Part shown: one piece after another, positions 3,786 to 61,785 of the stretch
Position numbering within the stretch: position 1 is the stretch's first letter
Layout of the letters: every line of letters starts with the position of its first letter
Source of the DNA: Eledone cirrhosa
Lineage: Eukaryota
Reading direction: 5' to 3'
Length of the DNA: 64,000 bases
Assembly: GCA_964016885.1 (NCBI GenBank)
Contig: OZ024743.1
Coordinates: 17,298,001 to 17,362,000 of the forward strand
Position numbers and translations under genes: made by a program
Notes under the pieces: model-generated
What the model saw: only the letters and a program-made list of their open reading frames with translations
What the model was told of the DNA's origin: nothing
Database searches by the model: none

Positions 3786-5620
3786 TAAAAAAAGTCAATC
3801 TGTGAACGCAGAAGTAAATATTTCGAAAAACGTTGCAACCGAAGGAAAACAGGAAGACGATAGTTTGGTTCGTGAAGACGTTCTCTGGCAATGAACGGAA
3901 AAAAGCGAAGATAATAGGTCATTATATGGTGCGATGAGAACAAAGACAAGCAGAGACAAAACCACGTTTTTAGTATAAATGAAGTCGTAGGCTAATGTTC
4001 TATTTAGGAAACAGAATGATTCTTGGCTTCAGAGTTAAGAATAATGTAAATAAAATAGTAGAACGAAAATGACACAGATTATTAAAATCAATCATAATTA
4101 AATATATACATACACGCATCCCATATACGTACATACACATGCATACGCGAAAACAACCGCCATGCATGCATATACAAGCATGTACATATAAACACGTGCA
4201 CACATACATAAACCCGCGTGACACCTGTACCCGCACACAAACAAACGTATACACCAAATACACATAAAAAATATATGTGTGTGTGTGTATATATATATAC
4301 ATATAATTATATAAACGTATATAAATATACACACATAAATTCGTATATAATGCACGCACACATATATATTCACTAAACGTACGTCAACCAAAACACAAAG
4401 TACACATATATACACACATTACATACGTGCAAACACGCAAAGAAACAGAAACAAAAAATACACATATACACATGTACCAGTATATATAATATAATATATA
4501 CACCTATAACAAATACAAGCAAATATGCAAACATACGGGTAAGATATACTTACAAGCAAACATACGGGCGAGATATACTTACCTATACAAAGCCTATATA
4601 GATTTAACAGCTTGTGACTTTAAAACCCGGCTCTACCAACACCGACTTACGTTACGAAACCCGGCTCGGCGACATGCCACTACACTCTTTGGCCACATAT
4701 GGGACCTCCAAGATAATAACATAACATAAAATCTTACTTGAAGCTTACTGTCCAGGGCCAACTCCTACACGGGAGGACGCCATCCGTGTAAAGTATGCTG
4801 GGAGAAAACATTACAAAGGCTGTTTACGAATGACCAACCCCTAAACAAAAAAGACAAATTGTAACTGCATGCAAGCACCGATTGCGTAGGACTTATCTCG
4901 CCCTCAAACCCCCTCAATAACCCGGGTGGGTAGACAGTGGCTGCAACATCGTCCTTTCCCCCACTTTCTGAACAATATGGGGGAAACCCCAGCCAACATA
5001 GGTAGATGTACTTCTCTTCTTTTCCATTTTGTTTTATTCTTCGCTTTATCTCTTCCTATCACTCTATTCCACTCCCTATCCTCTTCCTTTTCTTTTTTCC
5101 CCTTTCGCCATCCCCGAAGCAGCCCGACGGGCTTTTGTAGCCTCAGTACCCCCACCCCGGTAAATTATATATAGAATTGGCCGAAAACGCAATACCAACA
5201 ACATGCAGCTGTTTTAGACCCTATAGATTTTTTATTACTTTTTACTATCCAATTCTATAATTTTTTTTTTTTTTCTTTATGTAGTATCTTCTAATCTCAA
5301 TTTATTAACCTATTCTATAGTATTGGCCGAAATATAACAGCTGTTTTAGATTCTAGAGAATTTCTTTTATTACTTCTTACTATCCAATTTTATAATTTTA
5401 TATTTTTTAAACATTTATTTATTATCTTCTAATCTCAATTTATTAAGCAATTCTACAACGTCCCGTCTCTATTTTCTCCAGAATCCTTTTTCGCCTGCTT
5501 CCTATCTAGCCTATTTTCATACACACTCCTTTGAATTTGCTGCCATGAACGACTTAATTGTGTTTAAAAGAAATGTTGACCAATCCTTTTGACAACTACA
5601 ATATTCGCATATAAGGAATT

Positions 5621-9135: not shown

Positions 9136-9763
9136 TGGGATGCAGAACAATAATATGAGAGACGTAAAATAAGAAAATTATAAAATTAACTTACTTACTA
9201 AAATTTCACTCCAACTAATAATTTTCTTATTTTACGTCTCTCATATTATTGTTCTGCATCCCCATGCATTGAACCACAAAGTTACTAAGACAAAACCTAT
9301 ATATTTGCTAGCATAGGTATGCATCTGTGTATATATATGTTACTAGATATACTAATTCTTTATAATTAACTCCAAATTATTTTGTCGAGCAAAAATTGGC
9401 CGAAACTGCTACTATAGTAACGGTCCGGCTGTTGTCTTCTTAACAAACCACTCTTCACTGATTGACCTCGATGTCACGTGACTGATTCTTTTGAATTTGC
9501 CACCGACGCAGTAGGCAGTGATTTTTTCAATGGCTTGGAATTTAGTCCACGCTTTGCTTTTTTCCATCCACTGAATTATTTTTGTATAAGTTCCCTGTGT
9601 CCACGTATTGCCTGGAAACTTAGCTGAGAATATATTTCCCTGATGACGAAAGGCTTCTCTGTACGTTTCTTCGGAAACTATGTTTATTCCCTTTCAGAAA
9701 ACTAATTAGTTGGAGTGAAATTTTAGTAAGTAAGTTAATTTTATAATTTTCTTATTTTACGTC

Positions 9764-9770
<7 letters not shown>
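9136..9770 (+). mobile_element. Retrozyme-like element (~525-bp unit, terminal redundancy, short inverted arm), related to 60240-61375
   Basis: ATTTTCTTATTTTACGTCT at 9221 and ~9745; 9137-9220 is inverted; ends in (TA)n. Confidence 0.75.
9635..9716 (+). ncRNA. Type I hammerhead with branched stem II
   Basis: TTCC CTGATGA C-GAAAGG..[GTTTC-TTCG-GAAAC]..CCTTTC-A GAAA(A) CTAATTAG TT GGAG; one extra A after GAAA. Confidence 0.75.
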
Positions 9771-9844
<74 letters not shown>

Positions 9845-13292: not shown

Positions 13293-13463
13293 GGAATTAA
13301 TAAATCTGTACTCCAATGTTACTAGGTAGTTGCATTGGGTGGAGTCAACCGACGTCGGAGATTTCTCAACGTATAATAAAATATAATAAAATATGCTTTA
13401 AAATCCGGAGAAAATATGAAGAAGAAGTTTATGAAACGGAAATGCGGGTATAAAGAATTTACT

Positions 13464-13580
13464 AGGTAACAATTGTTTCTATAGTGTGTGGGTTACCTAT
13501 ACCTCGCTATTTGTATAATATAAAAATATTATCATAAATCGTAGGTACACTGTAAGAGAACACACCATGTCGTCAGACCT
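13464..13580 (-). ncRNA. Type I hammerhead with ~90-nt stem II in Naiad pLTR
   Basis: RC reads AGGT CTGACGA C-ATGGTGTGT...ACACACTAT-A GAAA CAATTG TT ACCT. Confidence 0.85.
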
Positions 13581-14024
13581 TTTAGGTAGAATGATAGGAG
13601 AATATTTTATACACTAGATATGTGAGAAAGTAGGAGGTGGGAAGGGAAGAGGAAGAGGGAGGCGAGTAAGGGGGAGGTAGTCTTAGGATTCAAGACTGTC
13701 AGAGTAGTAGAGATTGTATAGAAGAAAATGTTTTGGTAGCAGTTAGCTAAATGAGGCGTGTTAGGGTTGGCGGGGGAGTAAATTCTTCTAGTGGTGTTGT
13801 TTGGACAAAATTTAGTTAAAGGGGTCAATGTAGTACAGAATTATAGACAAGTTATTGGGGCTATTATAGTAGCAGAATATTTCTAAAGGGGTCTCAAAAA
13901 ACAGTGTTTTGTGCTATTATTATAAAAAGCGATATCGTGTGTATAAACATATAAAAATATGAAAAAAAATAATAACAATCTGCAAATGGTGGTGTAAAAA
14001 GATAACATTACATGCATTTAAAAA

Positions 14025-15228
14025 AAGAAAAAGTCGTTTTTAAACGATGGTTACAGTAAAGTGAACGTTCAATTTTGCTGTTCAAAAGTTTGTTTTCCGA
14101 CGTTAAAATGCAGTATATCTCCATATTGCATAATTTACAAAATCGGTGATTTTGCATATATGCTGGCGCATACGCAATAATTTATCAATCAAGGGAGAAT
14201 GCTTGATTGTTCTTCCGAAGCTGCCAGGCTTTATCGGCGAGGGTTGTTACGGAGCGCATTTTCTCATGCTTGATCGAAGATCGATGTTGGTATAGGCGAG
14301 CTTTGAAAGATGTTGCGGTACATCCGACGTAATACCATTTGTTGGTTCCGGAATTTATTGTACATCGGTAGACAATATTGCGTGCTAGGCATTGGTTATT
14401 CAATGGGCACGAACCTGGTTTAGTGCAGTTACAGTTATTTTTATGCTTTGCAGTATTATCCTGGATAGTTTGGTGGGGTTGTAGCTGCGTTTTAGTGCGT
14501 TGTATGTCGCTATGCTGGTGCGCTTTGTCATTAGGGATGTACTTAGTTTTGTTGAGTTGAGTTTTTTAATTAGTTGTTCTATGTTAGGTGCAGTGGAGTA
14601 TGAGAGTCTAATGGTGCGGGAGTTTAAGATTTTATAGTATGTATGTGAAGTTGTAAAGTGTTTATTGATCAGTGTTTAGAATCGTGAGATAATCTTAGTG
14701 CTAATAGAAATATTGTACACGGGGTTATACCATATGTACTCTCTGCGTCTAACTCTATTTGTTGGTTTGGACCTATTATTATGCCTATTAATGTGTATGT
14801 GTGGTGCAATACTAGTTCGACTTAGATGTGATTTATTCATAGTACCTATGTGGTTATCTTCTAGATATTCTATTTTGTCGCAGTAACCAGCTTTTCTAAG
14901 TGCGTCATTATAATACTCAGCATGCTCGTAGAATGTCTGCAAATTAGACGATAGTCGGGAGATCCATATGGATATATTTTTAGGGATAGATCTAATAATG
15001 GAATGGGGATGGTTCGATCTTACATTAACGTATTTGAGATTTTCATTAAGTTTGTGAAATGGCTTTATATTACCGTTAGTAAGGTTGAAGGTGACATCCA
15101 ATAAATTGACCACTTTAAGATTGTGTTCGAAGGTAATACTAAGTCCTAGTTCTAAGAAAAGTTTCCTAATGTTTTTACGTCGCCTTTCTAGGTTTTGTGT
15201 GTTCATATTTTTGACTAATAGGAGTGCA
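14025..15228 (-). pseudogene. PLE RT C-terminus/thumb + GIY-YIG endonuclease, disrupted
   Basis: ORFs 14676-15206 and 14185-14403, broken by stops and a frameshift; C-terminal CKLC..LLNSKIE..CNH follows the TGA TAA stops. Confidence 0.88.
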
Positions 15229-15290
15229 GCTCACAGACTCCAGAACGAATTTATTGACCTCCACGGCGGGAACTACCGTGATGATGCACT

Positions 15291-15932
15291 ATGAAATACT
15301 ATAAAATCTTAAACTCGCGCACCATTAGACTCTCATACTCCACTGCACCTAACATAGAACAACTAATTAAAAAACTCAACTCAACAATACTAAATAAGTA
15401 CATCCCTAATGACACAGCACACCAGCATAGCGACATACAACGCACTAAAACGCAGCTACAACCCCACCAAAGTATCCAGGATACTACTGCAAAACATAAA
15501 AATAACTGTAACTGCACTAAACCAGGTTCGTGCCCATTGAATAACCAATGCCTAACACGCAATATTGTTTACCGATGTACAATAAATTCCGGAACCAACA
15601 AATGGTATTACGTCGGATGTACCGCAACATCTTTCAAAGCTCGCCTATACCAACATCGATCTTCGATCAAGCATGAGAAAATGCGCTCCGTAACAACCCT
15701 CGACGATAAAGCCTGGCAAATTCGGAAGAACAATGAAGCATTCTCCCTTGATTGATAAATTATTGCATATGCGCCAGCATATAAGCAAAATCACCGATTT
15801 TGTAAATTATGCAATATGGAGATATACTGCATTTTAACGTCGGAAAACAAACTTTTGAACAGCAAAATTGAACGATCACTTTACTGTAACCATCGTTTAA
15901 AAGCGACTTTTTCTTTTTTTAAATCCATGTAA
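15291..15932 (+). pseudogene. PLE GIY-YIG endonuclease fragment (inverted copy)
   Basis: ORF 15291-15755 plus in-frame continuation after TGA TAA. Confidence 0.88.
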
Positions 15933-16358
15933 TGTTATCTTTTTACACCACCATTTGTATATTTTTATTATTTTTATTTCATATTTTTATATGTTTATAC
16001 ACACGATATCGCTTTTTATAATAATAGCACTAAACACTGTTTTTTAGACCCCTTTAGAAATATCCTGCTACTATAATAGCCCCAATAACTTGTCTATAAT
16101 TCTGTACTACATTGACCCCTTTAACTAAATTTTGTCCAAACAACACCACTAGAAGAATTTACTCCCCCGCCAACCCTAACACGCCTCATTTAGCTAACTG
16201 CTGCCAAAACATTTTCTTCTATACAATCTCTACTACTCTGACAGTCTTGAATCCTAGACTACCTCCCCCTTACTCGCTTCCCTCTTCCTCTTCCCTTCCT
16301 ACCTCATACTTTCTCACATATCTAGTGTATAAAATATTCTCCTATCATTCTACCATAA

Positions 16359-16475
16359 AGGTCTGACGACATGGTGTGTTCTCTTACAGTGTACCTACCA
16401 TTTATGATAATATTTTTATATTATACAAATAGCGAGGTATAGGTAACCCACACACTATAGACACAATTGTTACCT
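16359..16475 (+). ncRNA. Second copy of the Naiad pLTR hammerhead (GAAA mutated to GACA)
   Basis: AGGT CTGACGA CATGGTGTGT...ACACACTATA GACA CAATTG TT ACCT. Confidence 0.7.
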
Positions 16476-16536
16476 AGTAAATTCTTTATACCCGCATTTC
16501 CGTTTCATAAACTTCTTCTTCATATATATATATATT

Positions 16537-19556: not shown

Positions 19557-19602
19557 ATTAGCCAACAATGTTTCGTCCTATTAAGGACTCATCAGGGAAA
19601 TT
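19557..19602 (-). ncRNA. Type I hammerhead ribozyme
   Basis: RC reads TCC CTGATGA GTCC-TTAATA-GGAC GAAA CATTG TT GGC. Confidence 0.85.
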
Positions 19603-22797: not shown

Positions 22798-22842
22798 ATT
22801 GCCCTGATGAGTCCTTAATAGGACGAAACATTGTTGGCTAAT
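22798..22842 (+). ncRNA. Type I hammerhead ribozyme
   Basis: ATTGCC CTGATGA GTCC-TTAATA-GGAC GAAA CATTG TT GGC(T)AAT. Confidence 0.9.
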
Positions 22843-23199: not shown

Positions 23200-25203
23200 T
23201 CCGATTCTTCTGTATTCCGGAGTGTAGATAAAGAATGAATTATAAAACATGTAGACACCATAAAAAGGTAATTTATTCCGAGTAGTTATACAGCCTAGTC
23301 ATGCCATGTGCAAATTGGTAGTTATTTATTTGCAGATACTCAATTTTCAAATGCTGTTTATTCTACTATGTCTTCAGAGCAAATGGCTAAAGTGTAAATT
23401 CCCTTGTATTTCTTAAAGGGAGTTATAGGGGAAGATAGAGTAGAAAAGGAATAGAGATAGAAGATAGAGTAGAAATGGGAGAGAGATAGATAGAGATAGA
23501 GAGAGATAGAGATAGAGAGAGAGAGAGAGAGAGAGATGTTGGGGTCGGAGAAATGGGAGAGACTGGTTTGAAGAATACAGATAGCTTAATCTAAATGTTG
23601 TGATAGAGGGCCAACGAGTGGTTTTATTATACTGCTTATTCTCAAAGTGACAGCTTAGGCATTGTGTTGATATTGTCAAGTTTGGAATTATGTATTGCCA
23701 CAGAGATCAGGTTGAAAGATGTGAGGAATTACGGAGATAGACAGAGGGTGAGAGAGAGAGTTAGAGAGAGAGAAAGGGAGAGAGAGGGGCGACCGAAAAA
23801 AGCTAAGAGAAAGGGAAGGGAAGGTGATATACACCGAGTTTGTAGTTGTAGTTTGCTGATCGCACTTAAGTATCCATTTATTACGATAAGCAAGGTACTG
23901 ACTTATAATGTGTGTGTGTGTGTGGGAGGGGGGGGGGGTATAGTTAGGAAGTAGTTATTGCGTGAAATTAGTTAGCGTGAGAGTGGTGTCGTAATCTCGG
24001 ATTCATATTATGTAAAGTTACATTTAAAGTGAGCAAATATATCCCAATATCTCCATGGTACAGCTGTTAACCAACAAAAACTGCAACTGCCACCTTCCCG
24101 AAAGAATAAATGCTTGGAGTCCAACATTGTTTATCAATGCACTGTTGAATCAAACGACCAGAAATGGTATTACGTCGAGTCTACCACTACCTCCATTAAA
24201 TCACGCTGGTATCGTCATCGATTTTCGAATTAAACATCCTGAACACCGTTATGTAACCACGCTCGCCAACAAGACCTGGCAACTCCGTTAATACAGCCGG
24301 CAGTCCACCTTAAAATGGGATAAATTATCCAGCGCTAGTGCAACCTTGATCTCTTTTACATCTTGAAATATAAAAACAAGTTACTAAATGACAGAATCGA
24401 ATGATCGTTATACTGCAACCACAAACTGAAGGCTAAATTTTCTCCCTATAAACTAACTTAAAATAATATGAACCCGAGACTTCTACACCACTTTCTCGCT
24501 AACTAATTTCACTCAATAACTACTTCCTAACTATACCCCCCCCCCCCACACACACACACACTACAAATCAGTACCTTGCTTATCGTCATAAATGGATACT
24601 TAAGTTCGATCAACAATCTACAACTACAAACTCGGTGTATACCACCTTTCATTCCCCTTCGCTTAGCTTTTTTCTGTTCCCTCTCTGTCTCCCTCTCTCT
24701 CTCTCTTTCGCCCTCTCTCTATCTCCCTACTTCTCCACATCTATCAACCTGATCTCTGTGGCAATAAATAATTCCAAACTTGACAATATCAACACAATGC
24801 CTAAGTTAAAACTTTGAGAATAAGGAGTATAATAAAACCACCCGTTGGACCTCTATCACAACATTTAGATTAAGCTATCGGTATTCTTCAAACCACTCTC
24901 GCCCATTTCTCCAACCCCTACATCTCTCTCTGCTACTCCCTACCTCCCCTTCCCCTTCTTTCTCTCTTCCTTTTCTACTATATCTTCCCCAATAACTGAC
25001 TTTAAGAATACAAGAGAATTTACACTTCAGCCATTTGCTCCGAAGACATGGTAGAATAAACAGCATTTGAAAATTGAGTATCTGCAAATAAATAATACCA
25101 ATTTGCACATAGCATGAGTAGGCTGTATAACTACTATAGAAACATTTGTAAGCACTCGGAATAAATTACCTTTTTATGATGTCTATCGGTTTTGTTATTC
25201 AGT

Positions 25204-35039: not shown

Positions 35040-37515
35040 TTAAAACAAGATGTTGTTTGGACAACCTGAAGGGAAAGAAGGCACCGACTTGATCCCTGAG
35101 GCGGAACAAACTAAGACATTCTGGAGAGGAATATGGGAGAAGGTTTTTAAACTTAATGATCAGGCAGTGTGGATTGAGACAGTACAAAAGGAGTTTAGTG
35201 AACTGGCACACCAACAAACATATTTGAGCATCACACTTGAAACTCTTAAGGGGCAGGGCAGAAAACTAACCAACTGGAAATCAACAGGCCCAGAAGGTGT
35301 GCAGGGGTATTGGATTAAAAATATAACATCCCTCCCCCCGAAACTGACAACCATATTCAATGACTGCTTGATGTCAACTGAGGTACCGGAGTGGTTGACA
35401 AAACGTACCACAGTTCTGGTAATGAAAGACCGAACCAAGGGTCATGATGTTACCAACTATAGACCTATCACATGTCTGTCCGTAATGTGGAAAATGTTAA
35501 CAAGCATTGTGTCTGAGGAAATCTACCATCACCTCCACATAAACAAAACTTGTTACCGGACGAACAGAAATGATGCTGAAAGAAGTCCCGTGGTACAAAG
35601 GACCAGTTACTTAATGATAATATGGTAATGAGGAAGTGCAGGAGGAGGCACACTGGTCTTCCCCCGGGATGGATAGACTACAAAAAGGCATTCGACATGG
35701 TACCTCATTCTTGGATAACCAAAAGCCTAGATCTCCAAGGTGGCAGATAACATCAGACAGTTGTTGAGCAAAAGTATGAAGTCCTGGAAAACAGAGTTAA
35801 CATGGGTCGGAGAATCCTTGGGAGGCGTGAAGATCAAGAGAGGTATCTTCCAGGGAGATTTTGTCCTCTCTGTTGTTTGTCCTTTCACTGATCACCCTGA
35901 CCATTATACTGCGAAAAGTGAGAGCAGGATACAAGTTTGGAAAGGGAGAGCTTACCATCATTCACCTCCTCTACATGGACGATCTTAAGCTCTTCGGGAA
36001 GAGTGAGAAAGAGTTGGGTATGCTTGTTGAAACTGTCCGTATTTTCAGCAATGATATATGTATGCAACTTGGTATTAGTAAGTGTGGAGTCATTGTGATG
36101 AAGAGTGGTAAATTGAGCAGAAGCAACAGAATCCAGGTACCAACAGGTGAGATGATAAAGGAAATTGATACTGAAGAAGGATACAAATATTCAGGTGTTC
36201 TGGAGGCTGATGACATCAAGAACAAACAATTGAAGGAATTGATAAGATCTGAATACATTCGAAGAGTAGGGAGCGTATTAAAGTCACATCTGAACAGTAG
36301 GAATGCCATAAGTGCAGTAAATTCCCGAGCTGTGTCTATTATTAGGAACACTGCGGGAATTCTGAGATGGAATGTTGCTGAACAAACAGAAATGGATAGG
36401 AAGACTAGGAAGCTATTGACTATCTACAAAATGTTCCACAAGAGGAGTGATGTCGTTAGACTCTACTTAAGGAGATTTGAAGGTGGAAGAGGTGTTATCA
36501 GCATAGAGGACTGTATTCAGATGGAGAAAAACAATCTACACACATACATGACTGATATTAAGGAGCCAATGCTCAGAACTGTACTGAAGGAGGGGACAGT
36601 AGGCCAGGGGATGTCCAAAGAGGAAATAACATCAAGGAGGAAGAGCAGCCTTAAGGGAAAATCCCTTCATAGTACCTTCTTTGAGAAAACTGAATTTAGA
36701 GATCCACAGACATGGAACTGGTTGAGAAGAGGAGACCTCAAAAAGGCTACAGAAGGAATGCTAATGGCTGCGCAGGAGCAGGCCCTCAAAACGAAGTGGT
36801 TGAAGCACCATATTTACAATGAGGAGGCTAGCCCACTGTGCAGGATCTGTGGAGAGAGAGAGGAGACTGTGGCTCACATTGTGTCCGAGTGTAAACACCT
36901 AGCCCAGACCCACTATAAGGGCTGGAGACACGATGTGATGGGCAGGGTGATCCACTGGTACCTGTGCAAAGTAAACAATTTACCACACTCTTAGAAATGG
37001 TATGAGCATAGGCCAGAGACGGTGATGGAGAACAATCAGGTGAAGGTGCTGTGGAATTTTAGGATACAGACGGACAAAAAACTGGAACACAATAGACCTG
37101 ACCTGGTGGTTGTGGACAAAGAAAAAAGATCGTGTCTGATCGTGGATGTGGCCTGCCCTTTCGACACGAGAGTGCAAGAGAAGGAGAGGGAGAAAATTAA
37201 CCGATACCAGGACCTAAAGTGGGAGGCGAAAAGGATTTGGAACTGCCATGAAGTCAAAGTGATCCCGATTGTCATAGGCGCACTGGGGACTATCTCCAAA
37301 GGTTTCCAGGGATGGTTAAAGAAAATCGGCCCCGTCACGCTTTTTGGAACGCTTCAAAAGGCATGCTTGCTTGGAACAGCAAGAACCCTCCGATACGTCC
37401 TTAATATCTGAGGCTGCAGGTAGTGGCTTGATATTCATTCCAACGGACTTTCCAGTTAACCAACATCAATGACTGAGATTCAAGGAATAATAACAATAAT
37501 AATAATAATAATAGA
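35040..37515 (+). mobile_element. 5'-truncated R4/Dong-type non-LTR retrotransposon (RT + CCHC + restriction-like endonuclease), disrupted
   Basis: NYRPITCL, IDYKKAFD, RGIFQGD, LYMDD, CRICGEREETVAHIVSEC, RPD..IVDVACP..EKINRY; frameshifts and stops; (AAT)n at both flanks. Confidence 0.93.
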
Positions 37516-37559
37516 TTGATCAGATCAAGCTATTAGCACAAAGTCAGCGAAGGGAAAAT

Positions 37560-37990
37560 GAAACATGTGTCAGTGAAAACGAGGTAAACTGTAACACTTC
37601 GAATCCCAGGGTTGGGGCGGAATCACTGGCAACAGAACAAATTAAAGAAAGGATCGAAAAAGTGGAGGGAGTGCATGCTCAGGATGAAACTCCAAATGAA
37701 AATAATGAGATCGTAAAAGATAAAGAAATGAATGAGAATGAACTTGCCAACTTGAAGGATGAAATTATGATCGAATGGATGAAAATGAAAGAATCTGACA
37801 TGGGGCAACGAGACACCCTCCCTAAGATCCAGAACTCCAAACAGGACCAAAAGATAATACACAAGACTAACATAATTCTCAAAAACATTATCATCACAAA
37901 CAAACTAAACATTACTGATTTAAATCATCTCTATTATGCATCGGCTAAAGTCATCACTCACTTATCTGGAGTGAAGATGAAAAAACAAAG
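37560..37990 (+). pseudogene. Probable N-terminal fragment of a second R4/Dong-type element
   Basis: RDTLPKI...ITDLNHLYYASA resembles the pre-RT region of R4-clade proteins (recalled, not aligned). Confidence 0.55.
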
Positions 37991-38996
37991 CGTACTTTCT
38001 GCCTCAGGTGATGTGGGTTCTGCGCGCCCAGACGCACCCCAGGGCCTTTCAGATTTGAGCCGCCGTGGCTCTCTCCACCCGATGTGACATTTTGCTTACA
38101 GTGCGGTAAACCACCGTCCGTAGCTGCTGGTCCTTGAAAACAATCGGTTGGAGGTTTCAAGGAAACTCTATTGACGTTTCTTGCCACCATGGCCTTTGCG
38201 ACTGCCATCTCCTCTTCTGTGACTAACACCGTTTCGATATTTCGGGCGACACCTGCAAACGAAGTGGTCCCTTTTTCAGCGGCAACACTATTGCTGCCGC
38301 TACTGCACATGCTAGTAGTGCTGAGATCGCTGTTACAGGTATTGATGTCATTGTTGATGTTTTCGTTGGTACTGTTGTTGCTGTTGTTTTTGTTGCTTTC
38401 GTTGATACTGTTGCTGTTGTTACTGTTATTGTGGTTGTTGTTATTATTGTTGTTTTTGTTGATACTGTTCCTACTATTATTGTTGTTGTGGCTGTTGTTA
38501 TTGTCATTGTTATTGTCGTTCTAGACCTTACTGCTGTTATTATTGTTGTTGCTGTTGTTATTGATGTTGTTGTTGTTGGTGTTATTCTTGGTGTTGTTTG
38601 TGTTAGAAATGTTTGGTAATTTTAAATCTGTAACATTATCATTAAAAATGATATCGTTCCGCTTTTCCTTTTATTTTAATTTATATTTCCCTTCGCTTGA
38701 ACGCTGTCTCGTTGATATGTTGACAAAGTCTCTCTCTGTGTTGTCTGACAGCGCTCTCTCTCTTTTTTGCGTTATCCATGTTGAAAGAAATGTTTTACAA
38801 ATAATATTTTTACAAAATACGACACCCCGTAAAGGGGTGCCGTATTATTTACGAGTGAACCCCTGTATTAGGTGGGTTACTTCTTCTAAACTTTTATCAA
38901 GTTTAAAACTTGAATAAAACGTTCAGAACGGTTGAAAACGAAGTAAACTTGAAAAAAAAAATTGGAAGCGATAAGAAGCGTGGCTTCACCTCAATG
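37990..38996 (-). mobile_element. Putative 5' end (UTR + Asn-rich ORF1 start) of a LINE
   Basis: Minus frame has a poly-Asn tract then SFAGVA..; starts next to (ATT)n; an AATAAA-bearing 3'-end-like piece lies at 39012-39140. Confidence 0.35.
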
Positions 38997-42428: not shown

Positions 42429-45134
42429 TGTTGATGTTGTTATTGTATTTTTTTATGTTGTTATTTTTACAACTAATATTAAAATCATGGAGAGAGTCGT
42501 TAGAGCGTTGAAAAACATCTATTAAATATCAGTTTAGGAGTGTACGTTCAAAGTTGAAACTTTACGGATACCATATAATAAAGTACCTGTGAAAAAATGG
42601 TTTTGCTCTAATTGAATCGCTAATTTATTCTCAAATCCGCATAAACATTTCACATTCACCTAAGTTATGAAACAGTAATAACACTAACAATGCCACCAAC
42701 ATCCTCATCATATTTATTTACGTTGTCGTCTTCAAATCACATTCATTTTCAGCTGTGTGAAAGTTTCTGAACGAAAAATAAACATTTTATTATTTCTAAG
42801 TGCTTTCTAAATTCCGTATTTGAATTGCTACGTACACACTATCGACTGATATGCTTAATTATGACATAAGTGATTTGTAGTTGCTGTGCTATAATCATTT
42901 ATAGCGTTGTGATATTTCTTTTGGGATTACTTTATATTATTATATTCTCTTATTTTCTAGATATATATTATTTTCCATTGGGAATCATTGTAGAAATTGT
43001 ATTGGAGATTTCCATCAAACTTCCTCTAGAAAACATTTCTAAATCCACCTATTAGGTAATTAATTAAAACAATTTACCTGCCGTAACCACTCATATAAAC
43101 GGAAAGTTTGTATTTCTTCACGGTAGGCGTTCTTTGTTTTTCCTTCCCCACTTTGTACATAGACAGTAAGTTTTTGGCTACAAATAAGAGTATATCCAAA
43201 ACTGTTCCAATATTTGTAGAAACATGTTATTATAATGTTTGCGTTAAGGCTATACAATGTATCGGTAATAATATACTTGCAATATGTCCCCATGCGATGT
43301 CGAATCATAGTTTAACACCCTTCACTCTTTAATAAGAGTATAGGAAAAAGGGATTTGATACAATATTTTTGGATGTTGCCTACCTATTGAACCTAATATA
43401 ATGGGAATAGCATTTGGAATGATGTGCTTTCTATTTATCTTTATATGTAAGTGAAGAAAGGAGTACATGTATTAGTATATTACGCTAATGCAGATGATAG
43501 AACACATGCACTTCTTTATAATTCAAAGGTTTCCATTGTTCATATTATAGCTCTGACTTTTATTCATGTGAATACATTATACCGATATAATTGCGAATGC
43601 ATATATCTTCGAGTCATCAGGAATTACATATATTACACAATAGACATTTATATTTTCCTAAAGAATATTCCTCGTAAATGAAAATTGAATGGTGATTTAC
43701 AAGTGATATCTTATAAATGATATTATGAAATATCAGTTCCTGTTCATTTAAATGCACATCCGATTGAGTTTAAAGTGTGATTGTTTCTTACCTCTGTATT
43801 ATGTATTTCCAGACATGTTAATAAGCACTATCATTGTTTGAAAACAATAACCAGTACTATCGCCTTGAAGAGAGGACACATCCATCGTACATTTGAATAA
43901 ATAGAAGTAACCAAAATACTAGTAATATTTCCTTGTTCTATATTTGAAAAAAGGAAAACTATAATTGAGATTCGATTATGAAATTCACTAGAAATAACCA
44001 CGTTGTGTGCAACCGCAACTTCGTATATAGACCACAATCTACATAAAAAAGAAATTATTTGAAAAGCTGGAATCTGTTCAACTCTCATTCAATGCATTAT
44101 TTCAGACTTTAATTTCTATTCTCAGTTGCCTGATTAACTGTTTCATATAACAGCATATGTACATACATATGTGACTTTAAAGTAAAAATACAAATTCTCA
44201 AGTAAGGTAAACCACAATGCTCCTTTTGATTATAAGGAATGGAAGATAATATGCATATAATTATAACATATATATATAGGCAGAACGATACATGCATAAA
44301 CGCACATACTCACATACATACATATTTATAAATATATATATGTGTGTGTGTGTGTGTTCATTGCTGGGTGTGAGTGAGTATATGTGTGTGTTACGGCGTG
44401 TGTATATATATGTATTTTACAAGTACTACATATATTCTAACACTTGATTCCATGAATAGAGGCAATACTGAAACCATATTTTAGATTACACATTATACAG
44501 GCAAAGAGAGCAAAATTATTTTCCAAGAGTTCATTTAAATTTCGATTGAACCAACTTCTAAATAGATTCGACAACGCATTACAATATTGTGTACGAAAAC
44601 TTCAGAGCACTGCTAATGTTTTTTTGAGACATGACAACACACCTCGTACTTCACCAATGTATTATAATATGTTGTTTAAAGTAAATAACGACAATGCTTT
44701 GACATTCGTAGACCTGATGAATATGCATACATCTAACAGCCAGATCCATACAGTGATCATGTCTCGAGCTATCTGCCGGCGAAACAATTGTAACATGCAA
44801 TAAACTGAGTCCAGATGCATCACTGATCTTTGGTTTTGATACTATCCACACTCTGCTCTGTATGAATATTGAGTGCTAATTTTGGCATACCGCCTATGGA
44901 AGCACCATAGCTACCATTATACACACGTATATGTATATATATATGTATTATGTTGAGTTAATAACTCATAATACTCCCTTATATTAAAATTTGCTCGCGC
45001 AAAGAATTCCGACCCCTTATCCTTTTAATTGAGTTCGTACTAACTTTAGGTAATATATTCTTCACCTTGATAGTATCCCTTATTATTTGAACACACACAT
45101 ACATACACTCACACTCACACCACACGCATATATA

Positions 45135-48180: not shown

Positions 48181-48284
<104 letters not shown>

Positions 48285-48743
48285 TAAACGGAATAGAAAA
48301 TGCTGACAAATTGTTCACAGTTGAAAAATGGTTTAATTAGGAATAAAAGAGTATTAGTGATTGTATGGGTTAGTGTTCAGTTGTGGTTTTAAGTTTTTAA
48401 GTTTTTACCGGTTGCGCATTTCTAAATGCTTTTCAAAAATAATTTTGAGATAGAGTGTCCGTGCTGTTTGCTCTGATCTGATTAGTTTTGGGAATTCTAC
48501 CTGTTTTTATGTTAAAAAACTGGCTCCAATTTGCAAAAATTCTTGTGGTCAAAACAATTTTGATTGGTCGGTAGAGGTCATGTGAATGTAAAAAATTGAT
48601 TTTGCGCCAAGACTGTTTTTATGTAAAAAAAGTGGCTCCAGCAAAAATCCTTGTGGTCAAAATAATTTTGATTGGTCGGTAGAGGTCATGTGAATAAAAA
48701 ATTGGTTTTGCGCCAAGATTGAGAAATGACTCTTTCACAACAA

Positions 48744-48803
<60 letters not shown>

Positions 48804-48872
48804 TAGTAGTAGTAAGGAGTTCGATGTTGTGATAATGGTTAGCAGCGATGTGTCTCAAATGGCTATTAAGAT

Positions 48873-48929
<57 letters not shown>

Positions 48930-49200
48930 GCAGAGTAATTCGTGGTGGCAGGGATGGTGAGTAAGAGTGTGTTTGAAAGCAATGGGGGGTATTTTAGCAT
49001 GTCAAAAGATATTTTTCAGCTTTTGTCTTATACGGAGAAGTGCGTGTGTGTGTGTGTGTGTGTATATATAAGTCTCTTTGTATGTTGATGTACGCGTGTG
49101 TATGTGTGTGTGTATATATGTGTGTGTGTGTATGTGTGTGTGGGTGGAGCAGTATTTTTGTTTTTCCCCCTGGTAAAATGGTGTACATTATTCGACTTTT

Positions 49201-49274
<74 letters not shown>

Positions 49275-49426
49275 TACATATATATACATATATATATGTG
49301 CACATATATTTTCTTGTGTTGCACCATAGAGCATGTGTGTTTACGTATGTCATTGTGATTATATGTGGATAGAGATGTGTGCTGATGTAGAGATGTATGT
49401 TGACGTGTGTATGTTGTGGGTTCGTC

Positions 49427-51637
49427 TTAGGGAGAAGTGTTTAGACGGGGTCCGTATTTATTAATGAAGTAAGATTCCTTGCTGATGCGCTGGGTGTGGG
49501 TGGCATTATCTTTAAATTTGTAGAGGGGAGAGATTCTGAAGTTGGGATGATTTTGGGCGGCACAGGTATCAATGTGTTCACTCAGTGGTATTTTCCTGTA
49601 TTCCCGTATTTTGATTTGGGATCTATGGACAGTCATGCGTTGGTGGAGGCTGTTTTTGGTCTGGCCTATGTATTGTTCTCGACAACCTGAACAAGTTAAT
49701 ACATATATTAGATTTTCCGATACACATGTCAAATTGTGTTTTACTATAAAACGTTGTCCATCTTTGAAATAGAATTCCGAACCCTCTATTAGGTTGATGC
49801 AAATGCCACAGTTGGGTCTATCGCATTTTTTTACTGTGGGTTTCGTTGTTGTGGTTAGCAGTACTTTGGCATGTGTTAAGATGTTTTTCATTGACTTGGA
49901 TTGTATTTTGCTCTTTATGATGTCGTGTGTTCGTAGAATTTGGTTCATTCTATAGTCATTTTTCAATACAGGGATGTTCTGGAGGATGGTGTCAAAGGCC
50001 TCATTGTTGAAGGGGTTGCGTGTGGAGATGTATGGAAGAGCTTTTAGTTTTGGTTGATTTACTTTAGGGTGTCTAAGGTCCTGGATACAGAGTTTTAGGG
50101 CACGTTGGATTCCATTGTCAATTAGTGATGCAGGGTAGTCCCTGCCTATGAGTGTGTCCTTTAGTTCTTGTAGCCGTAAGTAGCAGATGTTTTTATTGGA
50201 GACTATAGTACATATTCTCTTGGCTAAGTTGTAGGGAATACTAATTTTAACGTGTCTAGGGTAGCAAGAGTTGAAGGGGAGATATTGCTTGGAGTCTGTG
50301 GGCTTGTAGTATATGTCTGTTTCTATTTTTTTGTTATGGATCTTAATGAGGATGTCGAGGAAGGGGAGTTGTTGATGGCTGTATTCCATCGTGAAGTTAA
50401 TATTTGTATTGAGCCCATTTATAAGGATGTGAAATTCTTTAAGTTGTTCGATATTTTCGGGCCATAGGATGAAGCAGTCGTCTAGATATTGCTTCCAGTT
50501 CCTTTCAATGTGTAAGTGGAGGGTGTTTCCAAATTTGTTTAGGACTTTAGTGTAGAGGGTGATTTCCAGGTATCCCATGACGAGGTTGGCATAAGTGGGG
50601 GCTGTTTTCGTTCCCATAGCGGTCCCAGATTTCTGCCTGTAGGGTTTGTTATTGAAAACGAAGTAATTGTTCTCCAAGATAAATTTGAGTCCCTCTATCA
50701 CGAATTCTTTTTTGATGCGTTGTGGGAGTTCATTGTGGAAATTATCCAGCCAGAATTGGATAGCTTCTATTCCTAGGCTGTGGGGGATGTTGGAGTATAG
50801 GTTGACTACATCGAACGTCACTAGTAGGGTTTGTTCAGAAAGTGGCATATTAGGGAGGTGATTGAGCATATCTAGGTCGTCCCTTATATAGCTTTTGATG
50901 TGCTTGAGGAAGGGTTTGAGAAGGGTATCAATGAAGTTGCTAAGACGGTGCGTTTCGCAAGCGGGGCCTGCTATTATAGGTCTTAATTTGAGATCATTGG
51001 GTGAGGGGACATTGATGACTATGTCTGTGGCTTCCTTGCATGCCTTACTTATTGATTCGCTTTTATGTACTTTAGGGATACCGTAGAAAAGGCTGGATTT
51101 ACTTGTGAAGTCTGTGATGAAGCTGAATTCCTTGTTAGTGAGTCCTTCTTTGTATTGGTTGATTATAGTTTTTAGGTTTCTCATAATTTTCTGTTGATTG
51201 TAGTGTTCAGCCTTTTCGTAGTATGTTTCGTTTTCCAAAGTGGAGAGCGCTAAGTTGATATAGAATTCTGTCTCCATTAGGACTACTGTACTCCCTTTAT
51301 CAGCCTCTTTAATTGTAATGGTTCTGTCGGTTTTTAATCTATTTAATTCTTCCCATTCTTTCTTGTTGAGGTTTGGCTTGTGTTTTTGTCTGTGCAAGTG
51401 TTGGTAAGGGAAGTTTGTGATGTGTTCACAAAATTCGTCCAGGATTTTATTTCTACCTTTTGAAGGGGTGTAATTGCTTCTATTTCTGGCTAATGATTCA
51501 TCCTCATTGTACTGGTCGAATAGTTGTTCACTAAGTCGTAACTTTCTACAGAAGTCTGTTATGTCTTCCTTCATTTCATAGTAGTTAGGACGTAGTGGGG
51601 TCGGTGTGAATTTAAGACCTTTGGAGAGTAAGTTCAT
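49427..51637 (-). CDS. PLE reverse transcriptase + Zn finger + GIY-YIG endonuclease (736 aa; N-terminus further upstream is decayed)
   Basis: LLSKGLKFTPTP, ADKG, RPII, FDVVNLY, GTAMG, YLDD, FLD, YYKPT, CxxxxCxxC linker, LIY..CxxC..YIGQT, R...H. Confidence 0.95.
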   Translation of the reverse strand: MNLLSKGLKFTPTPLRPNYYEMKEDITDFCRKLRLSEQLFDQYNEDESLARNRSNYTPSKGRNKILDEFCEHITNFPYQHLHRQKHKPNLNKKEWEELNRLKTDRTITIKEADKGSTVVLMETEFYINLALSTLENETYYEKAEHYNQQKIMRNLKTIINQYKEGLTNKEFSFITDFTSKSSLFYGIPKVHKSESISKACKEATDIVINVPSPNDLKLRPIIAGPACETHRLSNFIDTLLKPFLKHIKSYIRDDLDMLNHLPNMPLSEQTLLVTFDVVNLYSNIPHSLGIEAIQFWLDNFHNELPQRIKKEFVIEGLKFILENNYFVFNNKPYRQKSGTAMGTKTAPTYANLVMGYLEITLYTKVLNKFGNTLHLHIERNWKQYLDDCFILWPENIEQLKEFHILINGLNTNINFTMEYSHQQLPFLDILIKIHNKKIETDIYYKPTDSKQYLPFNSCYPRHVKISIPYNLAKRICTIVSNKNICYLRLQELKDTLIGRDYPASLIDNGIQRALKLCIQDLRHPKVNQPKLKALPYISTRNPFNNEAFDTILQNIPVLKNDYRMNQILRTHDIIKSKIQSKSMKNILTHAKVLLTTTTKPTVKKCDRPNCGICINLIEGSEFYFKDGQRFIVKHNLTCVSENLIYVLTCSGCREQYIGQTKNSLHQRMTVHRSQIKIREYRKIPLSEHIDTCAAQNHPNFRISPLYKFKDNATHTQRISKESYFINKYGPRLNTSP

Positions 51638-52545
51638 AAGGTTGGGTGTTGGTTCTGCACTAGTAAGATTGATAATTTTTATTACTATCGGTTTCTCCTC
51701 CCTGTCTTGTGTTATTTTGTTTGCCTGTATCTGTGTGCTGTGTCTAAAAAATGGTTGGGGTAGAGGGGTTGTCTGCTGATGTTAAGTGGTCTCCTGTGTT
51801 TGTTATATTCCTTGTTGTTGTAAAATGTGGTTCGGGTTGGTGGTTGTAGATTGAATGGGGTGTTCCTGTACTGCGAGTATGGGTGTGTGTTCCTATGTGC
51901 CATGTTGTATTGTGGTGTTATAAGTGGCCTACGTTGTTGGTTGTATCGTGTGGTGTGGGTTTGTTGTGTATTGTGGAAGCGAGAGTTGAGAAAATGGTAA
52001 TTACCATGCTGTCCCCTTGAAGCGGGGAAGTTGTTACATCTATCATGGCGGTGGTATCTTTTCCCTATGTTTGACGATGTGGCATCCGCGTAGTAGTTGA
52101 GTGATTTGGTATGGTGTCTCCTTGAAGGGGGAAAGTTGTAAATGTCATTCTGGGGGAGATGATTTCTTGGATTTGTGTTCCTTCTTATGGTAGCGAGGTT
52201 GGGAAGTTCATCTTCGGTGTGGTGCTTCCTTCTTCGTTTGTTAGAGGCTTGGGGGTTTGAGAAGTTGTTGTGCGGTTCAGTTATGGGTTTTCCTATTTTT
52301 ATGAACGGGTTATTGGAGGTGTAATCCGTTTGAAAAGTCGATTCATAGTGTAGGAACCAAGCGGCACTTTTTTCCCAGCGTTGAAGGGATTTCAGTTCTT
52401 CTCTGTTGCAGTCCCCTTTCCATAATTTGGAGATCTTCTCTACCTTGGAGCCTTCAGTTTTTGTTGTTTTTTAACATAAAAACAGGTAGAATTCCCAAAA
52501 CTAATCAGATCAGAGCAAACAGCACGGACACTCTATCTCAAAATT

Positions 52546-52584
52546 ATTTTTGAAAAGCATTTAGAAATGCGCAACCGGTAAAAA
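52546..52584 (+). ncRNA. Variant hammerhead in Neptune pLTR (UUGAAAA / GCAA); second copy at 48402-48440 (-)
   Basis: TTT TTGAAAA GCATT-TAGA-AATGC GCAA CCGG TA AAA; palindromic ACCGGT stem III and GUA site. Confidence 0.6.
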
Positions 52585-52740
52585 CTTAAAAACTTAAAAC
52601 CACAACTGAACACTAACCCATACAATCACTAATACTCTTTTATTCCTAATTAAACCATTTTTCAACTGTGAACAATTTGTCAGCATTTTCTATTCTGTTT
52701 ACCAATATATAATAACTTGTGTGTTACACCTCTATTCTTT

Positions 52741-54216
<1,476 letters not shown>

Positions 54217-55511: not shown

Positions 55512-55617
55512 GCTGACAATTGTTTCTCTGAACTGGTAGGTCTAGAGATCGCTATCTGCTTATGTTCACGTTACTCGATCGTCAATACAAAGTTATAACC
55601 AGTCAGTTCATCGGAGC
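55512..55617 (-). ncRNA. Type I hammerhead, CCGAUGA core, long stem II
   Basis: RC reads GCT CCGATGA A-CTGA-CTGGT...ACCAG-T-TCAG-A GAAA CAATTG TC AGC. Confidence 0.75.
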
Positions 55618-56928
55618 TTGCGAGAATGAAAAGAATATACATGCATGAAAAGAATATACAGGCTACTATATTTAGTAGTAATGGCATTCAGTCAGAACAG
55701 TAACAACAATATCAACAATGCTATCAATAAATTATTTAAAATAATCACAACATCAATCTAGGTGGGAAGTATAGTATACCTACGATTTTAGCGTGTAAAA
55801 CTAGCTGACATCAGGCAGATGTATAAAATTGACATGTAAAAACTGTCGTAGGGTGTATTATATCTAGTGTAAAGATAAGCTGGTGTCTTTAAACAATGTA
55901 GGTCAGGTGGCTGTAATATTCGGTTTTTATCTGACAGATGAAGGATTTATCACTGTAGTGGATTTGGGTGGTCTATATTCGATGAGATGGCCGTCTAGCT
56001 TTCTCATCATCAATAACATACATGTATAAGACAACGCTAACAAAGAAGCTAAATAATGGGTAAGTTAATACAGAGGTAAGGAGGCAATATATATATACAC
56101 ACATGCACACAAACATATATATATATATACACACACACATACATATAAAGAGAAAACATGCAGATTATAATTATAGCAGGAGGAAGGTACAGTTCTGTTG
56201 TAGTAGTATTTTGAAATGTTCTTGGATTTAGGATCAAGTGCTGACAGCAACTAAGAAGAGATATGTTTATGGGTTGATGAGGTACTTACAGACATTAGTG
56301 TGGTATAGAACTAAGAAGGCTAGAATGTACTTAATGATTATATATCTGTGGTGGTTCGTGCAGAGTAGTGGGTATTCTAGTTGAAAGCTATGTCACGTCG
56401 GTTCGATTTACGAAGGTTTAAATCTTATGAATTTAGTGGCGATCCTGTGTCTGCAGAAGATAGATCTTCTAACTTATTGTTAAGTAGCCTTTTTACATTT
56501 CTAAGGATATAGAGTAGTTTTAGATCACATAGCCTAAAGTGGGACATACATGTACTGTAGGTTTTAGCGGCCGACAATCATAGACCATTTGATACTGTAC
56601 CTAGTTTTGCTGTCCTTCACTTCCCATATTTTTTTGGCGAGGGTTGTAGAACCCATAAGTGCACGGTTTTTCATCGAGTAACTGTGCACATACCATCTTT
56701 TTTTTGTAATGCCAAGTGGCGTTGTCTGAGTTGACCGTACACATGTACACATGCCCGTTGGGGTGTTGCTGCTGCGCGCTTGTATGTGCTTGCGGTTGTG
56801 ATACTGTGATGTGTTTATGCTTATAATTTAGTGCAATGTTGCGCATAGGTGGGGCCGATTGCCATTACTACTAAATATAGTAGCATGTATATTCTGTTCA
56901 TGCCTGTATATTATTTTCATTCTCGCAA

Positions 56929-57024
56929 GCTCCGATGAACTGACTGGTTATAACTTTGTATTGGCGATCGAGTAACGTGAAAATAAGCGAATAGACCTAC
57001 CAGTTCAGAGAAACAATTGTCAGC
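56929..57024 (+). ncRNA. Type I hammerhead, CCGAUGA core, long stem II
   Basis: GCT CCGATGA ACTGACTGGT...ACCAGTTCAGA GAAA CAATTG TC AGC. Confidence 0.75.
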
Positions 57025-58058: not shown

Positions 58059-58165
58059 GGGAACAATTGTTTCACCTTAGCGGATCCTGATCTCGTAATG
58101 TTCATTACGTACTCCCATGTACGTCAATACTCATCGTTTTCCATTTCTCCGAGGTTTCTTAACCC
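58059..58165 (-). ncRNA. Degenerate long-stem-II hammerhead (UUAAGAA)
   Basis: RC reads GGG TTAAGAA ACCT...AGGT GAAA CAATTG TT CCC; truncated relative at 19320-19470. Confidence 0.55.
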
Positions 58166-60239: not shown

Positions 60240-61375
60240 AAGAATTTAGTATATCTACTAACATATGCGTACAGATGTACGCTAATGCTAGCAAATACAC
60301 AGGTTATGTCATAGTACCTAGGTGGTTCAATGCAGGAGGATGCAGAACAATAATATAAAAGACGTAAAATAAGAAAATTTTAAAAAATTAAAAAAATTAA
60401 CTTACTTACTAAAATGTTCACTCCAACTAATTAGTTTCTGCAATGGGATAAAGACAGTTACGTAATCTAACTGTCGATAATTCATTGCGTCATCAGGGAG
60501 TCTATTCTCAGCTAAGTCTCCAGGCAATGCGCGGACACTGGGGACTCATATAAAAATAATAATAATTCGGTAGATGGAACAGCTAGCGGGGACTGGATTC
60601 CATGCACTGAAAAGCTCGCTGTCACTGGTCAAATGGCAAATCCTAAATAATCAATCACGTGACACTGAGGCTAGTCGGTAGGAGTGGGATGGTAAGATGA
60701 CAGAAGCCTACTATCACACCAATAAATTAGTAGTGGTTTTGGCAGGTTTGCTCGACAAATAAGTAATTTGGAGTTAAATATAGAGAATTTAGTATATCTA
60801 CTAACATATGCGTACAGATGTACGCTAATGCTAGCAAATACACAGGTTATGTCATAGTACCTAGGTGGTTCAATGCAGGAGGATGCAGAACAATAATATA
60901 AAAGACGTAAAATAAGAAAATTTTAAAAAGTTTTAAAAATTAACTTGCTAAAATTTTCACTCCAACTAATTAGTTTCTGCAATGGGATAAAGACAGTTAC
61001 GTAATCTAACTGTCGAGAATTCATTGCGTCATCAGGGAGTCTATTCTCAGCTAAGTCTCCAGGCAATGCGCGGACACTGGGGACTCATATAAAAATAATA
61101 ATAATTCGGTAGATGGAACAGCTAGCGGGGACTGGATTCCATGCAGCTGTTCCATCTAACGAATTATTATTATTTTTATATGAGTCCCCAGTGTCCGTGC
61201 ATTGCCTGGAGAGTTAGCTGAGAATAGACTCCCTGATGACGCAATGAATTCTCGACAGTTAGATTACGTAACTGTCTTTATCCCATTGCAGAAACTAATT
61301 AGTTGGAGTGAACATTTTAGTAAGTTAACTTTTTAATTTGTTTTAAATTTTCTTATTTTACGTCTTTTATATATT
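60240..61375. mobile_element. Retrozyme-like element: ~540-bp unit, ~1.7 tandem copies (minus sense) plus fold-back arm
   Basis: AGAATTTAGTATATCTAC at 60241 and 60784; 61145-61375 is inverted; hammerheads at 60420-60501 (-), 60959-61040 (-) and 61228-61309 (+). Confidence 0.85.
61228..61309 (+). ncRNA. Type I hammerhead with branched stem II, intact core
   Basis: ACTCC CTGATGA C-GCAATG..[GACAGTTA/TAACTGTC]..CATTGC-A GAAA CTAATTAG TT GGAGT. Confidence 0.88.
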
Positions 61376-61785
61376 GTATTTATTTACTTTGTTCTTAACT
61401 CTGTAGCGGAGATTCATTTGGTCTCCTAGTTAGAATTTTAGTCTACAACTTCTGCTTTAGCTTTTACGTGGTTTTGTCTTTGCGTGCTATTGTTCTCCAC
61501 GCTCCACATATGACGTATTATCTTCGTTTTTTTCGTTCATTGCCAGAGAACGTCTCTATGAACCACATAAGAGAACATTAGTCTTCGGCCTCTATTATAC
61601 CATAAACGTGGTTCTGTCTTTGCACGTAATTGTTTTTCACCGCTCCTATTAATGTCGTATTATTCGTTTTTTCCCGTTCTTAGCCAGCGAACGTTTCCAC
61701 GAACCAAAGTATCGTCTTCCTGTCTTCCTCCGGTTGCAACGTTTTTTGAAATATCCAGTCCTGCGTTTACAGATTGACTTTGTTA

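Follow-up and report, generated by a model that had tools for sequence, protein, structure and literature searches.

A long-stem II variant of hammerhead motifs in Hydra-clade Penelope-like elements of Eledone cirrhosa

A stretch of 64,000 nt from Eledone cirrhosa (positions 17,298,001 to 17,362,000 of contig OZ024743.1, assembly GCA_964016885.1; hereafter the window, numbered from its first letter) contains hammerhead motifs whose stem II is enlarged to 81-92 nt. The locus raises two questions: which elements carry these motifs, and is the insert a selected RNA domain? We annotated the following long-stem motifs and related copies:

13464..13580, minus strand: complete family A type I hammerhead motif (core, fold and two A.G loops in stem II)
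16359..16475, plus strand: family A hammerhead copy with GACA replacing GAAA (A14C)
23225..24044, minus strand: inverted partner of family B, its hammerhead lacking GAAA and stem III by deletion
25036..25154, plus strand: family B hammerhead motif with a U4C core and a 92-nt stem II (25047-25138)
44710..44796, plus strand: additional long-stem hammerhead motif of family 2, with a 60-nt stem II and one A.G loop
55512..55617, minus strand: family C hammerhead motif with a U4C core, an 81-nt stem II (55527-55607) and an A.A first pair
56929..57024, plus strand: family C copy with the insert shortened to 71 nt by a 10-nt deletion, next to the longer (tail) terminus
58059..58095, minus strand: decayed short-stem hammerhead copy

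The copies at 13464, 25036 and 55512 are complete type I cores with a palindromic stem III and an 81-92-nt stem II, following the type I scheme of CUGANGA, GAAA and UH, three helices and an open stem I. In the 13464-13580 copy (minus strand), stem I consists of 4 bp (AGGU/ACCU; 13577-13580 paired with 13464-13467), the core CUGACGA at 13570-13576 is canonical, and the 90-nt stem II (13480-13569) begins with a C.A closing pair followed by 9 bp. GAAA and the palindromic stem III ACAAUUGU occupy 13469-13479, followed by U17, and cleavage is predicted 3' of 13468. Folded as a domain alone, this stem II reaches a z-score of -4.5 against 200 shuffles. The family B motif (25036-25154, plus strand) has a 4-bp stem I, the core CCGAAGA (U4C), a C.A first stem II pair and ACAUUUGU; its stem II contains both loop motifs described below and a weak middle helix, and this window copy folds no better than shuffles (z -1.2). 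The same is true of the window copy of family C (z -0.6), which has a 3-bp stem I and the core CCGAUGA (U4C; 55512-55617, minus strand). Given its A14C change, the 16359 copy is likely inactive.

The preliminary description of this DNA had assigned a single long-stem design to the copies at 13464, 16359, 25036, 55512, 56929 and 58059. That design stands for the three complete copies, and the copies at 16359 and 56929 share it with an A14C change and a 10-nt deletion, respectively; the 58059 copy drops out: its core reads ATCAGGA, and it is a decayed member of an abundant family in which stem II measures 11 nt. The mismatched first stem II pair that it had pointed out was borne out: it is C.A at 13464 and 25036 and A.A at 55512, and positions 10.1-11.1, usually G-C, are mismatched in 62 of 85 motifs genome-wide (U.U 23, A.A 21, C.A 7, A.G 6, others 5). 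First-pair mismatches were already common in published Hydra hammerheads (PMC8557442 File S2), and U.U at 10.1-11.1 is a known tolerated variant in the portions of PMC8557442 File S2, PMC7229834 and PMC3088659 available to us; we found no description of C.A or A.A at this position in those portions of the same three sources.

Rfam hammerhead models gave no match at gathering score across nine loci and never called the long-stem copies; in the window, the only hammerheads among the Rfam matches listed (150 of 172) were three short-stem ones. These three (19557-19601, minus strand; 22798-22842, plus strand; 53954-53998, plus strand) have a G-C first pair and a 14-nt stem II, belong to a separate inverted-repeat family, and score slightly below the gathering cut-off.

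The elements that carry the long-stem motifs were annotated from reverse transcriptase (RT) and endonuclease (EN) motifs:

13295..15230, minus strand: 5'-truncated Hydra-clade PLE of family A, with RT thumb, EN, 3' UTR, hammerhead and a tail to ~13295
14676-15230, minus strand: RT thumb of this family A element
14026-14433, minus strand: family A C-terminal GIY-YIG with CxCx5C, CxxC and CxH, and two stops
15230..16525, plus strand: inverted partner of family A, in which the 3' 1230 nt adjoin 63 nt of RT motif C
24105-24428: frameshifted family B Hydra EN
56591-56750, minus strand: family C Hydra EN remnant

Judged by these motifs, the host elements are Hydra-clade Penelope-like elements (PLEs) and not Naiads, as the preliminary description had them; the assignment uses EN and RT motifs, and the accompanying tree was built from EN sequences collected in this analysis. 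Window families A, B and C, like the full-length copies of family C, have the EN behind the RT thumb and at the end of the ORF, so the N-terminal GIY-YIG of Naiads is absent from all three families. The Naiad CCHH and DKA are missing as well: a single Cys lies between the VY and Y(I/V)G motifs, and DKT replaces DKA. According to the available text of Craig et al. 2021 (PMC8557442), the Hydra clade is defined by a C-terminal GIY-YIG with CxCx5C and no CCHH. The elements here have this C-terminal GIY-YIG without CCHH, the CxCx5C linker, and E and N residues flanked by CxxC and CxH (CNCTKPGSC..CKLC..CNH in family A, CNCHLPDRC..CGLC..CRH in family C), and they carry RWK and DKT without GxKF (ADKT in both families, with RRVRWK in the 794-aa ORF of family C and RRIRWK in family A). 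With the Naiad label gone, so is the implied surprise of hammerheads in a clade said to lack them. Among the top 30 of 150 GIY-YIG hits in this genome, none had an N-terminal EN followed by RT; most were C-terminal and Neptune-like. Pfam returned no family at useful scores in five of six proteins, all Hydra ones included, and a homologue search of the element proteins gave hardly any named matches.

The elements are organised as a hammerhead, 213-282 nt to an ATG, a 794-aa ORF, a 3' UTR and a second hammerhead 3.5 kb on. An intact family C copy (locus L410) has hammerheads at 4565 and 8092, an ATG at 4945, the 794-aa ORF between them and a (TA)n end. Partial tandems and (TA)n ends occur, and the 3.5-kb family C unit is above published Hydra lengths (under ~3 kb). 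Elements end at (TA)n at one of two distances from the predicted cleavage site, 52-60 nt or 165-231 nt beyond it, a two-terminus tail pattern, which implies that reverse transcription starts downstream of the cut. Among the 150 scored hits, several contain frames of 806-808 aa and many share the same score, suggesting recent activity. At L410:4547-4903 (hammerhead and 5' UTR), contig depth is ~50-100x that of the ORF start, so short pLTR-only pieces dominate family C. The tails are ~120-170 nt here, compared with 30-40 nt published. Many copies (L061, L074, L079, L089, L092) break off or switch orientation no more than a few bases upstream of the hammerhead core, as though RT stalled or folded back at the structure. 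The plus-strand partner of family A terminates at (TA)n ~55 nt past its hammerhead, and its RT motif C is inverted in this copy only; we rejected the idea that family A is an amplified palindromic unit, since other copies are colinear and the inversion is confined to the window copy.

Across the 3.0-Gb genome, the pattern core-N60-100-GAAACAWTTGT has 14,375 matches (sites with two upstream cores being countable twice) against 37 for the reversed pattern. The same pattern ends with an 8-39-nt spacer give 15,199 matches against 21 reversed, and a looser pattern with a 40-59-nt spacer gives 7,697 against 885 for the control. For family assignment we sampled 30 loci and 40 stretches from 100 listed matches, plus the window, yielding 86 motifs that fall into 12 clusters; the multi-member clusters are 42-63% identical to each other, two of the 12 have a single member each, one a rearranged copy and the other probably a chance match, and a short-stem reading of cluster 1 is possible. 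Long-stem hammerheads comprise at least 10 families, and short-stem families are equally abundant. A filter for stem I and helix II was passed by 51 of 85 genome motifs and by 3 of 120 metagenome matches to a near-identical pattern; in the metagenome scan, 119 stretches matched at chance level and had no Hydra protein nearby, and no relative was found in viral contigs. Stem II lengths form a continuum of 11, 20, 26, 47-53, 58-63 and 78-98 nt, and stem II enlargement appears to have been repeated several times in this genome. Loci L154 and L158 and the 40-59-nt matches add further families with a 47-59-nt stem II and other palindromes (ACCAUGGU, ACAUGUGU). The 95-nt stem II of L032 and L050 (family 4) folds into two hairpins on a three-way junction and does not resemble the rod described next. 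Two Hydra families with long ORFs (L194, L203, L204, L197, L199-L201, L209) have no recognisable hammerhead in the 1.6-2.2 kb past EN; one of the two has a lone CUGAUGA/CUGAGGA ~95 nt past EN, without a matching GAAA-stem III.

In one lineage the stem II insert follows a common plan. A single layout (NN-A(U/G)U, 6-7 nt, YG-A(G/U/A)U, hairpin, (U/C)AG-CR, 5-7 nt, AG-NN) parses in 8 of 11 representatives and folds into a rod: a basal helix, an NN-A(U/G)U : AG-NN loop, a 6-7-bp helix, a YG-A(G/U/A)U : (U/C)AG-CR loop and an apical hairpin. The distance between the two A.G-containing loops is 11-12 nt along the 5' strand and 9-11 nt along the 3' strand, approximately one helical turn. The 2 bp closing loop 1 vary by family yet always pair (GU/AC, GC/GC, AC/GU), and the AG-8nt-AG spacing has 5,456 reverse-strand matches against 33 for a spacing one base longer. 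Long-stem families 4 and 5 adopt other folds. Kink-turns have tandem 5'-GA/5'-GA pairs beside a 3-nt bulge; the loops here are 5'-AG/5'-AG or 5'-AU/5'-AG without such a bulge, and thus are not kink-turn or box C/D motifs. Likenesses to the k-turn, loop E, SRP and tetraloop-receptor motifs were rejected as unlike in orientation or sequence.

Families 9, 10 (C) and 11 align over a gap-free 51-column block. Their 28 sequences have 90% of cells paired and 51 double changes, values that none of 500 shuffles reaches for either measure, with slid partners at 27-42%; the structure scored was named from these same sequences and RNAalifold, and these counts, like the others given here, are inflated by relatedness. 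The number of pairs with a double change in these families is not above shuffles (93 of 500). Families 2 and 3 (13 sequences) are 91% paired with 15 double changes (0 of 500 shuffles). The alignment of families A and 13 spans 90 columns without a gap, and compensatory changes occur in 7 of the 13 pairs, including 3 within the insert; as two families are compared, each compensatory change counts as one event. Among 33 distinct family C domains, shared variants occur in 12 of the 26 columns that belong to loops and in 5 of the 55 that belong to helices or motifs (Fisher p 3e-4, the columns not being independent). Likewise, 7 of 9 frequent family C variants in sequencing contigs sit in plain loops; these contigs (three sets from one sample, possibly the same genome) were used for variant positions only. 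Paired columns contain more G.U than A.C (33 vs 22 and 21 vs 7), which mildly favours the sense strand. Primary identity between families barely exceeds shuffles in stem II (0.54 vs 0.49) and is at shuffle level in the upstream 120 nt (0.50 vs 0.51).

Applied in its strict form, a two-loop descriptor, handmade and written once A, B and C had been seen, recovers family C in 37 of 43 domains, family A in 18 of 31, family 11 in 7 of 12 and family 13 in 4 of 4, compared with 0-3.5% of shuffles; families 13 and 14 had been retrieved by patterns containing the 3' motif. Families B, 4 and 5 give no match to it (0 of 11, 0 of 13 and 0 of 12 domains, respectively). A covariance model from the C/9/11 insert returned more C-type copies and none of A, B, 13 or 14 at E<=5, so the match across groups depends on the handmade descriptor. 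In the EN tree, A, B, C and 13 form a supported clade (99/94), with family 5 outside and short-stem families elsewhere; the tree comprises 31 rows and 137 columns, its bootstrap is unsettled, one row duplicates C, and families 2, 3, 4, 9, 11 and 14 are absent. The A and C proteins are 62% identical over the N-terminal 428 aa, 49% in the thumb and 42% in EN. In summary, there is good comparative evidence that the insert is a selected extra RNA domain in one lineage (A, B, C, 13): the earlier proposal of an extra RNA domain, made for all these hammerheads, is upheld for that lineage by covariation inside the insert and conserved internal loops.

The closest published relatives are the Hydra-clade hammerheads of Craig et al. 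2021 (PMC8557442), which share with ours the clade, the pLTR position, type I topology, palindromic stem III, first-pair mismatch and (TA)n insertion. Their File S2 lists loops II of 3-10 nt, often with U.U or U.C first pairs and a palindromic stem III, whereas stem II here measures 58-98 nt and adds conserved internal loops and frequent U4C. Of 13 Hydra loci on contigs from other hosts, 11 had a hammerhead, all with a stem II of 12-31 nt. Selaginella PLE-X1 hammerheads, marked as deviating in the same file, also have an enlarged loop II (29 and 35 nt), but they belong to Chlamys-type, EN-minus plant elements, are about half the size, and the File S2 table does not contain the repeated A.G module. 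The minimal, dimeric hammerheads that Cervera and de la Pena 2014 (PMC4209133) report for PLEs share the short stem I, a helix III that is palindromic (or absent), low activity, the dimer model and a proposed circular intermediate; as far as the available text goes, their helix II has 6-8 bp, a small loop and a conserved G10.1-C11.1, in contrast to the multi-helix domain and mostly mismatched 10.1-11.1 seen here. The preliminary description had contrasted the long inserts with stem-II-reduced PLE hammerheads; this misdrew the difference, for the minimal forms lack helix III and keep a helix II of 7-8 bp in the parts of PMC4209133 at hand.

Other systems resemble these elements in single respects. 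The hammerhead of Anolis carolinensis Poseidon (Frangieh et al. 2024, PMC11167929, available in part) likewise lies upstream of two termini (tail), with a model of protein-assisted cleavage; Poseidon is another clade, its ORF begins inside stem II, and the available text mentions no enlarged stem II. Naiad PLEs share (TA)n targeting and inverted and partial-tandem insertions; the PMC8557442 sections available give them an EN at the N-terminus, with CCHH, CxC and DKA, and no canonical hammerheads, and the elements here agree with none of these points. The Naiad core search in those sections used a 7-17-nt spacer, and eight half-cores lay 35-50 nt apart. The discontinuous Clec2 hammerhead is also natural, with a large insertion in one arm and a position near a poly(A) region, but by the portion available of the review PMC6155905 it is type III, with a 150-1500-nt insertion in helix I, in single-copy mammalian genes. 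In the literature searched we found no published description of a 60-98-nt stem II in PLE hammerheads (Lunse et al. 2017 may describe related variants), and five stem III words had no match in published consensus files, where line breaks could mask some.

What might the insert do? Our preferred reading, which we hold tentatively at a probability of roughly 0.4, is that these are type I hammerheads of Hydra-clade pseudo-LTRs and that in one lineage the stem II rod docks the element's own RT-EN, which would switch on weak, dimer-type cleavage. The two hammerheads of a partial-tandem transcript would pair via their palindromic stem III and cut out a unit-length RNA, which may circularise; as reverse transcription must begin downstream of the cut, the template would be uncleaved or re-ligated RNA. 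The rod would present two equivalent loops, one turn apart on the same face, to RT-EN, so that cleavage is coupled to RNP assembly; such a placement would fit a protein that is dimeric or has two sites. A.G pairs oriented in this way make the major groove wider and are favourable to binding by proteins. The short stem I, palindromic stem III, mismatched first pair and U4C suggest weak cleavage that needs dimerisation or help, as argued in part from PMC4209133, PMC6765202 and PMC3088659; U4C reduces in vitro hammerhead activity in the text available of PMC3088659, which makes a helper plausible. The Anolis Poseidon hammerhead offers an analogy in both directions: in the available parts of PMC11167929 it cleaves only with its protein, reverse transcription starts internally and the protein is predicted to be dimeric, whereas the protein-binding region maps 3' of the ribozyme, in the ORF, and insertion in vitro does not need cleavage. 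By this analogy, the last two points would count against docking. The short-stem families are as numerous (15,199 matches), so the rod is not needed by Hydra elements generally.

Other roles for the rod have to be weighed against docking. It could be an RNA-RNA module whose tertiary contacts with an extended stem I or the dimer partner replace the loop I/loop II contact and tune the ribozyme without protein. Stem I does continue through a bulge in several families, the rod loops are conserved, and stem I-stem II contacts are needed for hammerhead activity at low Mg2+ (PMC3088659, available in part). However, the conserved loops would lie ~18-30 nt from the core, probably beyond reach of a 4-8-nt stem I in the same monomer, the internal loop nearest the core is the most variable part, and stem I extensions vary across families; we consider this explanation unlikely. 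We think it a little less likely still that the rod was selected apart from catalysis as a host-factor site (export, stability, 3'-end formation or translation) for which the hammerhead is only the carrier. Within 25 nt past the cleavage site, 118 of 178 copies with a long stem and 18 of 37 with a short one carry an A(A/U)UAAA hexamer, and the ATG lies 213-282 nt downstream. This hexamer, which could be either a poly(A) signal or a TATA-like element, is found past the cleavage site of most Hydra hammerheads, here and in other hosts (L421-L431). As it also follows short-stem hammerheads, it is not tied to the insert, and on any RNA that is not circular, cleavage would part the rod and the ORF downstream of it.

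Alternatively, loop II may simply be tolerant in weak ribozymes, enlarged repeatedly by RT fold-back duplications and selected only for generic pairing that prevents core misfolding. The continuous range of stem II lengths from 11 to 98 nt fits such an origin, as do the unrelated long folds of families 4 and 5 (family 5 lying outside the A/B/C clade), the frequent local inversions at hammerheads and the success of short-stem families. Generic pairing does not explain, however, why unpaired A and AG residues keep a fixed spacing despite helix turnover, or why families 9, 10 and 11 share their gap-free block, and we give this account as little credence as the host-factor site. Far less probable than any of these is that the spliceosome removes the insert as a small intron, restoring a short stem II. 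The rod starts with GUAUU and ends with UAG in families 9-11, and PLE pseudo-LTRs are known to contain introns, one touching the Drosophila Penelope hammerhead (PMC4209133, in the part available). Yet family B has GC at the equivalent 5' position and families A, 13 and 14 have AC, in every case complementary to the 3' side, which points to base pairing and not a donor site; the GU...AG span is merely 47 nt; and no insert-skipping joint appears in the sequencing contigs, which come from one sample and may be the genome's own.

The window contains further elements. A non-coding 540-nt tandem and inverted repeat (60241-61377 and 9533-9786) is retrozyme-like and has its own long-stem hammerhead with a 51-nt stem II, a C.A first pair and the palindrome ACUAAUUAGU:

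60496, minus strand: hammerhead of the 540-nt repeat
61035, minus strand: hammerhead of the 540-nt repeat
61233, plus strand: hammerhead of the 540-nt repeat
9640, plus strand: decayed copy of this hammerhead

A Neptune-like PLE (48275-52711) has a 784-aa open frame between 246-nt perfect inverted repeats, with GxKF, DKG, RVT_1 and, C-terminally, a GIY-YIG with CCHH; no hammerhead was found in its ends. Non-LTR reverse transcriptase fragments in several frames lie at 35044-38087 and are presumably RTE/CR1-like.

Hammerheads of the Hydra clade were already known; what appears to be new is the long-stem II variant. The hammerheads of Penelope-like elements cleave poorly, one needs its protein and insertion in vitro proceeds without cleavage. 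Closely related families with short and long stem II in one genome, together with the intact 794-aa copies of family C, make the role of the ribozyme periphery and its recognition by RT-EN directly testable. The finding also reveals a blind spot: ~14,000 hammerhead motifs lie outside descriptors with 7-17-nt spacers and went uncalled by Rfam in the loci tested. It is conceivable, though we regard it as doubtful, that the variant is a natural protein-gated switch, in which the repeated A.G module would bind dimeric RT-EN and make cleavage and re-ligation to a circle conditional on RNP assembly; since long-stem forms escape Rfam and short-spacer descriptors, PLE clades called hammerhead-less, among them Naiads with their half-cores 35-50 nt apart, may hide them.
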